DNA from: a virus | Lineage: Duplodnaviria; Heunggongvirae; Uroviricota; Caudoviricetes | Reading direction: 5' to 3' (one strand) | Virus record (IMG/VR): IMGVR_UViG_2872185964_000002 | Length of the DNA: 15,966 nt | Shown: in pieces, positions 1 to 15,966 of the stretch | Numbering within the stretch: the first letter of the stretch is position 1 | How the letters are laid out: the number at the start of each line of letters is the position of its first letter | Notes under the pieces: generated by a model | What the model was told of the DNA's origin: nothing | The model's database searches: none | The model's input: only the letters and a program-made list of their open reading frames with translations | Translations under genes and position numbers: made by a program

Positions 1-654
1 ATGGGACGCTGGCTTGCTGGCAGGCTCATGAAAGAGCTGGGGCTGGTCAGCTGTCAGCAGCCGACTCACCGGTATAAACGTGGTGGTCATGAACATGTTG
101 CTATCCCTAACTACCTTGAAAGGCAGTTCGCCGTGACCGAGCCAAATCAGGTGTGGTGCGGTGATGTGACCTGTATCTGGACGGGTAAGCGCTGGGCGTA
201 CCTCGCCGTTGTTCTCGACCTGTTCGCAAGAAAACCAGTGGGCTGGGCCATGTCGTTCTCGCCGGACAGCAGGCTCACCATGAAAGCGCTGGAAATGGCA
301 TGGGAAACCCGTGGTAAGCCCGGCGGGGTGATGTTCCACAGCGATCAGGGCAGTCATTATACGAGCAGGCAGTTCCGGCAGTTATTGTGGCGATACCAGA
401 TCAGACAGAGTATGAGCCGGCGCGGAAACTGCTGGGATAACAGCCCAATGGAACGCTTCTTCAGGAGTCTGAAGAACGAATGGATGCCGGTGGTGGGTTA
501 CGTAAGCTTCAGCGAGGCAGCTCACGCCATAACGGACTATATCGTTGGATATTACAGCGCACTAAGACCGCACGAATATAACGGTGGGTTACCCCCAAAC
601 GAATCGGAAAATCGATACTGGAAAAACTCTAACTCGGTGGCCAGTTTTTGTTGA
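1..654 (+). CDS. IS3-family transposase OrfB (DDE integrase core), 5'-truncated by window edge
   Basis: 217-aa ORF with transposase hallmarks ([22 protein letters not shown]-terminal [15 protein letters not shown]); stop at 652-654 lies just inside the terminal repeat. Confidence 0.85.
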
Positions 655-662
655 CCACTTCA
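1..662 (+). mobile_element. IS911-like IS3-family insertion sequence, 3' portion; window begins inside orfB, right terminal inverted repeat ends at 662
   Basis: ORF 1..654 is a DDE transposase OrfB C-terminus; 635-662 (ccagtttttgttgaccacttca) is the reverse complement of the IS911-type terminal repeat TGAAGTGGTCAACAAAAACTGG as I recall it. Element name is from memory. Confidence 0.65.
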
Positions 663-778
663 GTTGGCAAAAGCCGAATCTCCGCTGGCTGTTAGCTTGT
701 ATGACTATATTAATGATGCTTCGGCACTGGCCTGCCTCATAAATTTGTCGCTGAACCCTTCAGAGGTAAGGGGCGCAA

Positions 779-1003
779 ATGATCCGGAATATTTTCAAAC
801 GGTTTACCAATCAGACTTTCCGTTGTCCTCGTCCGGGTCAGTGGTACACCACGCCTGCAGGGCATGTTCTACGTGTTAGCCTGGTTGACCGTGAATGTCA
901 GAAGGTGATTTGTGAACCGCTGGGCCGTAATTACCGCATCAGTATGCCGCTTATAGCCTTTCGCTCCGGAAAAAACATGAAGCATCTCGGAGGTGCTGCA
1001 TGA
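779..1003 (+). CDS. hypothetical small phage protein (74 aa), translationally coupled to the replication gene
   Basis: ATG 779 preceded by aagggg; stop overlaps the downstream ATG (ATGA at 1000-1003). Function not recognised. Confidence 0.4.
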   Translation: MIRNIFKRFTNQTFRCPRPGQWYTTPAGHVLRVSLVDRECQKVICEPLGRNYRISMPLIAFRSGKNMKHLGGAA

Positions 1004-1261
1004 GTATGGAGCTGATGGTTAAAGCGATGAAAATTCGAGTGGGAAATCCATTGCGAAAACTGGTTCTGATTAAGCTGGCTGATAATGCCAGCGATCAGGG
1101 TGAGTGCTGGCCCAGCTACCAGCATATTGCTGACCAGTGCGAGATTAGCAAACGTTCTGTGATGAATCATATTGCGGCCCTTTGTGAGTCCGGGCTGGTA
1201 AAAAAAGTCACCCGGAAAGGTGAAAAAGGTAACTCAAGTAATATCTATCTCCTTCATCTTG

Positions 1262-1370
1262 ATGGTGCAGGAGATTCACTAGGGGTAGTGCAAATAATTC
1301 ACTATCTGGTGCAGCAAATGCACCAGGTAGTGCAGGAGTTGCACCAAGGGGTAGTGCAGGAGATTCACCC
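1262..1370 (+). repeat. five direct 19-21 bp iteron-like repeats (consensus about GGTAGTGCAGGAGATTCAC) inside the replication gene; candidate origin
   Basis: GTGCA cores at 1265, 1289, 1309, 1330, 1354 (spacing 20-24 bp); the arrangement parallels the iterons inside lambda O. Confidence 0.55.
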
Positions 1371-1371
1371 A

Positions 1372-1419
1372 GAACCAGTCACTCTTTTGAACCAGTCAAA
1401 GAACCAGTCAATGAACCAA
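1372..1419 (+). repeat. three and a half tandem copies of GAACCAGTCA (12-17 bp spacing) just downstream of the iterons
   Basis: GAACCAGTCA at 1372, 1389, 1401 and GAACCAA at 1413; encodes the EPVx linker repeat. Confidence 0.5.
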
Positions 1420-12895: not shown

Positions 12896-12948
12896 CCTGT
12901 TTACCTCTTTCTCAGGGAGTTTAGTCTCCAGGATTCCCGGGCGGTTCA

Positions 12949-12951
12949 GAG
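12949..12951 (+). repeat. target-site duplication GAG, right copy, of the IS629 insertion
   Basis: See left copy. Confidence 0.6.
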
Positions 12952-13718
12952 GCATTCCGGGATTTGGCCCGGGCATGGGCATCTGCCCGCGATGATTTAC
13001 GGCATGCAAGGCAACGTCTGAAATCGTTTCTTCTGGTTCATGGGGTCCATTATGTCGGGCGAGCAGATTGGGGCCCTGCACACCGACGCTGGCTCAGCAA
13101 ATACTCATTCGAAAGTCCCTGGCGACAATTAGCTTTTGACGAACACCGTCGTACAATAGAAGACCGGCAGGCACAATGTGAACGGCTGGAATCCGCCCTG
13201 AAGGAGGCCGTTACCGAATGGAGGCTGTATCCGGTAGTAGAGGCGCTGCAAGCCATGCGAGGGATTCAGTTTATTACTGCGGTTGGATTAATTTCTGAAC
13301 TGGGTGATCTGACCCGTTTTGAACATCCACGACAACTGATGTCATGGTTTGGTATCACGCCATCAGAATATTCATCGGGTGGAAGCAGACATCAGGGCAG
13401 CATTACCAAAGCCGGAAACAGCTATGCCAGAAAGCTATTGGTCGAGGCAGCGTGGAGTTACCGTCATCCGGCACGCATCAGTCCGGCAATACAAAAAAGG
13501 CAGGAAAATTTACCCCGCCCCGTCATTGACAGAGCATGGGATGCTCAACTCAGGCTTTGTAAGAGGTATCGAAAACTTCAGGCCAAAGGAAAGAATGTCA
13601 ATATTACAATTGTTGCTGTTGCACGTGAGCTGGCGGGTTTTATCTGGGATATGGGCCGAATAGCAATGTCTGTCGCACAACAACCACAATGTCACAAATA
13701 AAAAATGAGAATAACCAG

Positions 13719-13905
13719 TTCCCTGAAGGCGACGTAGCCCGGTACAAGAGTAACCCACGTTAGCGCTTGGCGACGGCGGAACAAAGCTGATTCGCGACGT
13801 AAGAAAGTGGCAGGCTCATATGACGGACCTCTGTAATGCGGTATCCAACCCGCGAATATCAGCGTGATTCACCGTCGGATTTACTGCTACGTCGCCCTCA
13901 GGGAA
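13719..13905. other. 187-bp non-coding module bounded by 20-bp inverted repeats (TTCCCTGA[A/G]GGCGACGTAGC), between the IS110-family gene stop and the IS66 end; candidate structured ncRNA or MITE-like remnant
   Basis: 13719-13738 versus reverse complement of 13886-13905 match at 19 of 20 positions; no ORF inside. Confidence 0.35.
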
Positions 13906-13994
13906 TTAAACCTAAAAAGAAAATCGTCAAAATTAGAGATTCCGGTTTGACACGGAAAGTCATATCAGGCGTCAACGGAGCACCGTATTGACGC

Positions 13995-15613
13995 TTATTT
14001 ATTGGTGAGTGCTACGTTCCATGGCAGGAGTTCGTCAACACGGTTGGAAGGCCATTCCGGCAGTACGCTCAGGATATAGCGCAGATACGCTTCCGGATCG
14101 ATACCGTTCAGTCGGCAGGTGCCGATCAGCCCGTACAGTAGCGCACCACGCTCTCCACCGTGATCGCTGCCGAAGAACATAAAGTTTTTCTTTCCGAGAC
14201 AGACTGCACGAAGCGCTCTTTCCGCGGCATTATTATCCGCCTCAGCCAGACCATCATCACTGAAGTTGCACAACGCAACCCAGTGCTTCCTGATATACCG
14301 GAACGCATCTCTCAGACGGCATTTTTTCGATAACGTGTGTTCTTTCTCCTGCATCAGCTTATACAGGGAAGTCAGTAGCGGTTTACTCTGCATTTGCCTG
14401 ACCGCCAGGCGTTCAGACACCGGCAACCCGCGTATTTCGTGCTCGATGGCGTACAGCTCACCGATTAGTTTCAGGGCTTCTTCCGCTGTCGCGCTTTTGG
14501 TACTGATATATACATCGTGGACTTTGCGCCGCGCATGAGCCCAGCATCCTGCTTCCGTCAACGCGCCGCCTTCTCGTTCGGCACTGAACAGCCGATCGTA
14601 ACCATTAAACGCATCTGCCTGCAGGATACCCCGGAAGGGACTAAGGTGCTGCTCCGGATGTTTACCCTGATGGTCCGGTGAGTAGGCGAACCAGACCGCC
14701 GGAGGCTCTGGCGAACCGGCATTCCTGTCATCCCGGACATACGTCCAGATATATCCTGTTTTCGCCTTCTTCCTGCCCGGTGCCAGCACTTTTACTGGTG
14801 TGTCATCAGTGTGAACTTTGCGGCTGTTCATCACATAACGGTACAGAGCATCATTCAGCGGCGTCATTAACTGGCAGCACGCGTCAACCCAGTTGGAGAG
14901 TAATGCACGGCTCAGTTCGACACCCTGACGGGCAAAAATTTCACTCTGACGATACAGTGGCAGGTGTTCGCAGTATTTTCCCGTTAACACGCGGGCAAGT
15001 AACCCGGGCCCGCGATACCACGCTCTATCGGACGGGATGGTGCCGGTGCTTCAACGATGCAGTCACATTTTGTACAGGCTTTTTTTACCCGTTCTGTGCG
15101 GATCACTTTCAGAGCGCTGCTCACCAGTTCCAGTTGTTCTGCGCTGACTTCCCCCAGATAATCCAGCTCACCGCCACACTCCGGGCAACAGCTTTCTTCT
15201 GGCTCCAGGCGATTTATTTCGCGGGGCAGATGCTCCGGTAACGGGCGACGATGACGAGACTGTCGCAACTGGCGGGGAACCTGCGGATCGTCTTCCCGCC
15301 CACTGTAACGATCACTGTCCTGTTCGCGTTGTTTCAGCAGGGCCTCAGCCTGTTCAACTTCACGACGCAGTTTTTCAGAACGGGTACCGAACAGCATCCG
15401 GCGCAGTTTTTCTATCTGAGCCCGCAGATGTTCTATTTCCCGTTCATCTTCTTCGATCTTTTCTTCGGCGCGGGCCAGTGCAGAGCGCAGGAAGGCCTCC
15501 GTCTCTTCAACCAGACTCAGTTGCTGGTCTTTCTGACGGGCTGGCATTCCAGTTCTGCAATGCGAATGAGGTATTTTTGATTCATGGCCGTTTTTATAAT
15601 CCGGCCATGACAT
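13995..15613 (-). pseudogene. IS66-family transposase TnpC, apparent 1-bp deletion at 15001-15002
   Basis: N-part ORF 14984..15613 (leucine-zipper-like region, CPECGG zinc-finger motif) and C-part ORF 13995..14990 join as ...GIAGPGLLARVLTGKYCEHLPLYRQSE if one A is added. Confidence 0.8.
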
Positions 15614-15615
15614 TT

Positions 15616-15966
15616 TTACAACATTGTCAGTGCGTTAAGGCGGGATGTTTTTGGCTGACGCCAGTCCAGCTTATCGAGGAGCATTGCCAGTTGCGAGCGG
15701 GTAATGGATACCTTGCCGTCACGCACAGCAGGCCAGATAAACTGGCCTTCCTCCAGGCGTCTGGTGAACAGGCACAGACCATCAGCATCAGCCCACAGGA
15801 TTTTAATCATGTCACCCCGTCGGCCACGGAAGATGAACAGGTGACCGGAGAAGGGATTATCATTCAGCACATGCTGTACCTGTTCACCCAGCCCGTTGAA
15901 AGACTTACGCATATCGGTTATCCCAGCAACGAGCCAGATGCGGGTGCCTGACGGGAGTGAGATCAT
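15616..15966 (-). CDS. IS66-family TnpB (Orf2) accessory protein; start codon is the last three bases of the window
   Basis: 116-aa ORF MISLPSGTRIWLVAGITDMRKSFNGLGEQVQ...; stop 2 nt before the tnpC start. Confidence 0.85.
   Translation of the reverse strand: MISLPSGTRIWLVAGITDMRKSFNGLGEQVQHVLNDNPFSGHLFIFRGRRGDMIKILWADADGLCLFTRRLEEGQFIWPAVRDGKVSITRSQLAMLLDKLDWRQPKTSRLNALTML

Follow-up and report, generated by a model that had tools for sequence, protein, structure and literature searches.

The stretch of DNA analyzed here (IMG/VR record IMGVR_UViG_2872185964_000002; its full length of 15,966 nt is referred to as the window) carries the remnant of a lambdoid prophage, flanked by insertion sequence (IS) elements, in which many genes are broken by frameshifts. 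The window contains 21 one-base contractions of mononucleotide runs (21 events in 16 kb, 1.3 per kb), which affect 10 genes as well as non-coding DNA. We consider it very likely that the frame breaks are consensus-calling errors of a long-read-only assembly from the PacBio RS era that did not undergo short-read polishing. In the DNA of the strain itself, the runs are almost certainly longer and the open reading frames (ORFs) intact. The error signature, the absence of the contractions from independent assemblies of the locus, and the exact restoration of the sequence upon repair are direct observations. That the sequencing platform was PacBio is inferred from the accession block (CP0267xx-CP0268xx) and from the agreement with PacBio error signatures in the literature.

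The window originates from GCA_002950295.1 / CP026872.1 (about 271795-287760 of a 4.71-Mb closed chromosome). When the whole collection was searched with the truncated 140-aa fragment of the replication protein, an exact match was obtained on one contig only, CP026872.1. The window is positioned downstream of argS-yecM-cutC-torYZ-cmoBA. Two unbroken proteins from the window, used as queries, revealed the identical remnant at the identical chromosomal site in many other assemblies (compared loci are denoted by L numbers), among them Shigella boydii CDC 3083-94 (CP001063, L018), which dates from 2010 or earlier. In most assemblies with the remnant, the genes are whole (replication protein, 274 or 278 aa; Dam, 217 aa; RusA, 129 aa; KilA-N, 269 aa; Q, 126 aa; nanS-p, 564 aa).

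The contractions are listed below. The "true" run length is the length found in other assemblies or in reference copies of the same sequence. For the sites at 12870 and 12939, the references were IS629-like copies from E. coli, with 97.6% and 99.5% sequence identity.

770..773, + strand: G4 (true G5), non-coding, about 6 nt before the start of a 74-aa ORF
1282..1285, + strand: G4 (true G5), replication/HTH_36 gene; 274 aa become 140 aa + 128 aa
1810..1815, + strand: G6 (true G7), end of the replication gene (final codons); L013, L017, and L020 are contracted here too
2298..2301, + strand: G4 (true G5), 3' end of the PerC-family gene; 162 aa become 164 aa
2564..2567, + strand: C4 (true C5), Dam methyltransferase; 217 aa become 106 aa + 111 aa
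3050..3052, + strand: G3 (true G4), rusA
3280..3281, + strand: C2 (true C3), rusA; the shortest run affected
3578..3581, + strand: G4 (true G5), KilA-N gene; also contracted in L013 and L017
3590..3592, + strand: G3 (true G4), KilA-N gene
5215..5219, + strand: G5 (true G6), antiterminator Q; also contracted in L013, L015, and L017
5521..5524, + strand: G4 (true G5), antiterminator Q
7603..7605, + strand: G3 (true G4), non-coding, in the interval between the tRNA cluster (7225-7474) and nanS-p
8452..8454, + strand: G3 (true G4), nanS-p (SASA esterase)
8609..8611, + strand: G3 (true G4), nanS-p
8817..8820, + strand: G4 (true G5), nanS-p
9487..9491, + strand: G5 (true G6), nanS-p
9700..9702, + strand: G3 (true G4), nanS-p
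10283..10285, + strand: G3 (true G4), IS600 orfB (minus-strand gene), near the C-terminal end; the stop is lost and 272 aa become 345 aa
12870..12873, + strand: G4 (true G5), IS629/IS1203-like orfA (minus-strand gene); 108 aa become 91 aa
12939..12941, + strand: G3 (true G4), non-coding end of the IS629/IS1203-like element
15003..15005, + strand: C3 (true C4), IS66-family tnpC (minus-strand gene), split into 331 aa + 187 aa; also contracted in L017

A 22nd contraction is located at 15970, 4 nt past the end of the window, in IS66 tnpA (C4 to C3).

A preliminary description of the window had reported frame breaks at homopolymers for at least nine genes (14 sites). The breaks are present and the runs are one base short, but the count has to be raised to 21 sites in 10 genes. 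Ten of the 14 listed runs were placed correctly to within 1 nt (2564-2567, 3280-3281, 3590-3592, 8452-8454, 8609-8611, 8817-8820, 9487-9491, 9700-9702, 10283-10285, and 12870-12873). For the other four, the gene was right and the run was not: the T-run 1385-1388 has to be replaced by GGGG 1282-1285, the A-run 3055-3058 by GGG 3050-3052, the G-run 5243-5246 by GGGGG 5215-5219, and AA 15001-15002 in IS66 tnpC by the neighbouring run CCC 15003-15005 (C4 to C3). Seven events were not in that list (770, 1810, 2298, 3578-3581, 5521, 7603, and 12939-12941).

Evidence for sequencing error comes from a closely related, independent draft assembly, GCA_014039615.1 (L010). Over positions 666-10196, the window and L010 differ by 17 one-base gaps and not by a single mismatch. 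All 17 gaps are bases lacking in the window, 15 of them in G runs and two in C runs. The four further contractions were recognized with other references: 10283 in IS600, 12870 and 12939 in the IS629-like element, and 15003 in IS66 tnpC. After repair, the region 666-10196 is byte-identical to L010 (9548/9548), and all 10 affected genes are restored: the replication gene (274 aa), PerC (162 aa), Dam (217 aa), rusA (129 aa), KilA-N (269 aa), Q (126 aa), nanS-p (564 aa), IS600 orfB (272 aa), IS629 orfA (108 aa), and IS66 tnpC (539 aa).

In a site-by-assembly matrix, L009, L010, L011, L014, L018, L021, and L022 have the longer run wherever they cover a site. The nearest relatives of the window, L010 and L007 (CP026762), have none of its contractions. 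Scattered subsets of these (1810, 3578, 5215, 15003, and others) occur in L013 (GCA_002968185.1), L015 (CP049281), L017 (CP026797), and L020 (CP026795), and this group of assemblies also has private contractions in G or C runs (592 C, 4215 G, 5856 G, 7369 C, 9385 G, 11538 G, and 15223 G). The accessions of L017 and L020 (CP0267xx) neighbour that of the window. The sharing of contractions does not follow a tree and conflicts with the grouping by single-nucleotide polymorphisms (SNPs), which at 4536-4554 places the window with L010 and L007 and apart from L013 and L017. The contractions thus recur independently, at runs prone to error, and are not inherited. Assemblies L013, L015, L017, and L020 probably need the same caution as the assembly from which the window was taken.

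The base and run-length specificity was determined by a run-by-run census of the window against the best references (the tally includes the event at 15970). The contracted fraction was 0/157 for G3, 8/37 for G4, 7/11 for G5, 2/2 for G6, and 1/1 for G7; for C runs it was 1/130 (C3), 2/24 (C4), and 1/5 (C5). None of the 158 A/T runs of at least 4 nt (up to 8 nt) is contracted, compared to 21 of the 80 G/C runs of at least 4 nt (Fisher p = 1.6e-11). The contraction rate rises with run length, from about 20% at G4 to about 60% at G5 and 100% at G6-7. Expansions within runs were not encountered in the census of the window against the references. The error is thus specific for G/C runs and deletion-only, and is not a general homopolymer error.

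The same signature is found in the core chromosome. Upstream of the window, cutC has G5 instead of G6 (221 aa instead of 248 aa; L006 position 1580, 7421 nt upstream), and torY has G4 instead of G5 (342 aa instead of 366 aa; L006 position 3625, 5376 nt upstream). Over about 9 kb of core DNA, the contraction rate per run does not differ significantly from that in the window (p = 0.18). We had considered that the errors might be limited to repeated or mobile DNA, as a result of poor polishing of multi-mapping regions. This was rejected, because the core DNA upstream has the same signature.

Such errors have been described before. PacBio and Illumina sequences of Thermus thermophilus NAR1 differed by 2927 deletions and one insertion, at about one per kb and mainly in G/C homopolymers of 5-6 nt (PMC7694296). 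For actinobacteria, the PacBio consensus was reported to be prone to omit G or C, whereas 454 data inserted G/C instead (PMC4849082), and G homopolymers are a known weakness of Quiver, as noted for Xanthomonas tal genes (PMC4853030). The window resembles these PacBio RS/Quiver cases in that the errors are deletion-only, affect G/C runs of about 4-7 nt, occur at about one per kb, cause artefactual frameshifted ORFs, and are gone in Illumina-based sequence. It differs from Thermus, where 1.64% of the G/C homopolymers were affected, by a much higher rate per run (about 60% of G5), which suggests that the effective coverage was lower or that the chemistry or model was older.

A further parallel is the set of 59 historical Shigella genomes sequenced by PacBio (Kim et al., 2018); like these, the source of the window is a closed Shigella chromosome from the same accession block. 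Yassine et al. (2022; PMC8795385) left the closed genomes of the series out of their core genome multilocus sequence typing (cgMLST); that paper reports numerous homopolymer indels in them and attributes these to missing short-read polishing. For strains sequenced with both PacBio and Illumina, the listed cgMLST distance between the two genomes ranged from 29 to 288 (PMC8795385). Accessions CP026832 and CP026840 are ascribed to the Kim et al. series in published papers, which also assign neighbouring accessions (CP0267xx-CP0268xx) to strains from the USA. On the strength of this accession block, PMC8795385, and PMC10132075, the source assembly is presumed to have been made from PacBio CLR reads without short-read polishing. 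Two siblings from the block, CP026795 and CP026797, have the same kind of contraction at the locus. A third, CP026762 (L007), is clean there, unlike the window. Quality therefore varies between the genomes of the block, in agreement with the range of cgMLST distances. The frame breaks are not a biological finding: the artefact is already described for the Kim et al. series and for PacBio consensus sequences generally.

Under this explanation, the consensus would omit one base at G or C homopolymers, with an omission being likelier the longer the run, and A/T runs would be called correctly. The lost base would shift the reading frame, so that gene callers would fragment the gene.

Several points weigh against attributing the breaks to a PacBio consensus. 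Run lengths were judged from other assemblies and not from reads of the strain itself, and the short-read origin of the comparison drafts is assumed from the style of their accessions. Neither CP026872 nor GCA_002950295 is named in the texts or supplements searched, membership in the series being deduced from the accession block. G runs are contracted more often than C runs (18/51 vs. 3/29, p = 0.018), a difference that should not occur in a double-stranded consensus. When stratified by run length, this excess is not significant (p = 0.088); it is mostly due to the + strand holding more and longer G runs. Finally, an additional G at 13968 (TCAGCG to TCAGGCG) compared to L003-L005, L007, and L013 breaks the deletion-only pattern. 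It is the only +1 difference, and is located outside of any run in non-coding DNA, between the end of ISSso6 and the stop codon of IS66 tnpC.

The principal alternative is that the genes are genuine pseudogenes, with -1 frameshifts accumulated by neutral decay in a Shigella lineage that is rich in IS elements and undergoes genome reduction. Genome decay does occur in Shigella, and real lesions common to all assemblies exist at this locus. IS elements truncate the prophage on both sides, nanS-p has a nonsense codon at 8207-8209, an IS629-like element is inserted into ISSso6, and one copy of tnpC is annotated as frameshifted in a plasmid from enteroinvasive E. coli. A cryptic prophage remnant that is bounded and invaded by IS elements, with a nonsense mutation in nanS-p common to the assemblies, indeed resembles genuine Shigella decay. 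The 21 frameshifts do not: they are not shared by descent, are not accompanied by substitutions, and have a base specificity that resembles a sequencing chemistry. In neutral decay, substitutions far outnumber indels, but 0 substitutions stand against 17 indels relative to L010, a ratio that cannot be reconciled with mutational decay. All of the events (21/21) are -1 changes in G/C runs, compared to 0/158 for A/T runs, which include runs of 7-8 nt. The nearest relatives have inherited no event, contractions recur at these very runs in assemblies that are unrelated by SNPs, and the conserved core genes cutC and torY bear the same lesion. We thus consider genuine decay to be very unlikely as the origin of the frameshifts. 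The preliminary description had favoured systematic homopolymer-length error over independent decay, and this preference is borne out by the comparison with L010 (0 substitutions, 17 deletions), the exact repair, the longer runs in seven other assemblies, the scattered sharing of contractions among four more, the lesions in cutC and torY, and the literature. Its alternative of a heavily decayed prophage applies in part: the frameshifts are not decay, and yet the remnant is truncated by IS elements and nanS-p has one genuine nonsense codon.

Hypermutation, either in a strain deficient in mismatch repair or in a Pol IV/DinB mutator, would account for events that are confined to mononucleotide runs and become more frequent with run length, as is predicted for slippage. 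Overproduction of DinB biases toward -1 frameshifts in G:C runs. However, the contraction of about 60% of the G5 runs with no base substitution is orders of magnitude past any mutator, and most genes, including essential ones, would be frameshifted. Slippage is also expected to yield both +1 and -1 changes and to affect long A/T runs, neither of which is seen. Slipped-strand, phase-variable G tracts fit no better, because the true runs (3-7 bases) are shorter than contingency tracts, which typically have 7-8 bases or more, and because the changes are -1 only and affect 10 unrelated genes as well as non-coding DNA. The lack of inheritance and the hits in core genes count against a mutator and against phase variation as well. 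The literature ascribes the same pattern in the Kim et al. series to missing short-read polishing. Both variants are considered extremely improbable.

It is equally hard to believe that another platform or process generated the errors, be it miscalls by nanopore or flow-based sequencing or a strand-specific compression in Sanger data. All of these yield errors in homopolymer length, and the nominal excess of contracted G over C runs on the + strand would suit single-strand data. Nanopore, 454, and Ion Torrent, however, affect long A/T runs at least equally (0/158 here, with 7-8-mers included), and 454 tended to insert rather than delete G/C. A closed 4.71-Mb chromosome from a 2018 accession block that is tied to PacBio by papers also argues against this. 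A G-only artefact restricted to one strand, as from single-strand Sanger compression, had been considered based on the excess of G runs on the + strand, and was dropped because the asymmetry is gone upon stratification by run length (p = 0.088). The preliminary description had proposed "long-read or flow-based" data. The long-read part fits; flow-based chemistry (454, Ion Torrent) is unlikely, since the error is G/C-specific and deletion-only.

There is hardly any chance that the contractions are real in the culture, which would make it a decades-old Shigella stock with genome-wide -1-only frameshifting specific for G runs (Pol IV-type slippage or storage damage).

The attribution to PacBio consensus error is of practical value only, as a quality warning. 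Ten genes are falsely fragmented in the 16-kb window. In the assembly concerned, and in some of its siblings, gene calls, pseudogene counts, cgMLST alleles, and inferences on prophage decay are unreliable at G/C runs of at least 4 nt. True inactivation at the locus consists of the IS truncations and insertions and of the nanS-p nonsense codon, and should be kept apart from the artefacts.

In nanS-p, a TAC codon is changed to TAA at 8207-8209 in all S. boydii-type assemblies. The esterase, which has 653 aa in E. coli prophages, is thereby divided into pieces of 77 aa (DUF1737) and 564 aa. Because the nonsense codon is common to these assemblies, nanS-p is genuinely disrupted, with or without the five artefactual frameshifts. 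Among the IS elements, which truncate the prophage on both sides, IS600 is itself 5'-truncated. The IS629-like element in the ISSso6 transposase gene has a 3-bp overlap between its flanks (11638-11640 and 12949-12951), consistent with a target-site duplication. The insertion is absent from the other loci with ISSso6 in this comparison (L007, L013), and looks like a real strain-specific transposition.

A frame change is natural in IS3-family elements such as IS600 and IS629, where a programmed -1 frameshift joins orfA and orfB. The IS629-like copy in the window has this site near 12570-12573, intact, and reference copies are annotated with "programmed frameshift". The natural frameshift near 12570 should not be "repaired". 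The events at 10283, 12870, and 12939 differ from it in that they are located off the slippery site and are absent from the reference copies.

The elements of the window which are independent of the contractions are as follows.

1-654: IS3-family orfB, at the left end of the window
663..10196, + strand: lambdoid prophage remnant, IS-truncated, without stx; a genuine background feature
7225-7474: tRNA cluster Met(cat)/Arg(tcg)/Arg(tct), upstream of nanS-p with a gap of about 500 bp (interval 7225-7976)
10196..15966, no strand assigned: IS nest, genuine, comprising the next four entries
10196-11133: IS600, 5'-truncated
11133-11640 and 12949-13611: ISSso6, two pieces split by an IS629/IS1203-like element
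11641-12948: IS629/IS1203-like element, inserted within ISSso6
13762-15966: IS66-family element

BLAST comparison to complete E. coli genomes identified 663-10199 as the regulatory region (early and late) of a lambdoid prophage similar to Stx phages, with about 96% sequence identity to E. coli prophages. The gene order is a small ORF, the HTH_36 replication gene, the PerC-family gene, Dam, rusA, KilA-N, DUF968, antiterminator Q, an N6/N4 methyltransferase, three tRNAs, and the nanS-p esterase. The remnant (663-10196) is related to Stx-converting phages and has no stx genes. The Stx2 prophage L002 carries them in the interval between the equivalent tRNA cluster and nanS-p.

When the E. coli prophages were used as the sole reference, the G-run pattern was seen, together with false events around 1815, 2569, 1285, and 15540. 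When true orthologues serve as the reference, the latter resolve into run contractions or lineage polymorphisms.

Among the compared assemblies, L013 has about 14 contractions at the locus, one of them in the core gene cmoA. A 12-bp in-frame indel (GAACCAGTCAAA) at position 1389 of the replication gene results in a protein of 274 or 278 aa, with the extra copy being present in L007 and L011. The indel looks like natural variation between strains rather than an error. In the DUF968 gene, seven clustered substitutions (4536-4554) distinguish the window and L007, L009, L010, and L011 from the rest, a patch which looks like a short recombination or gene conversion between prophages.

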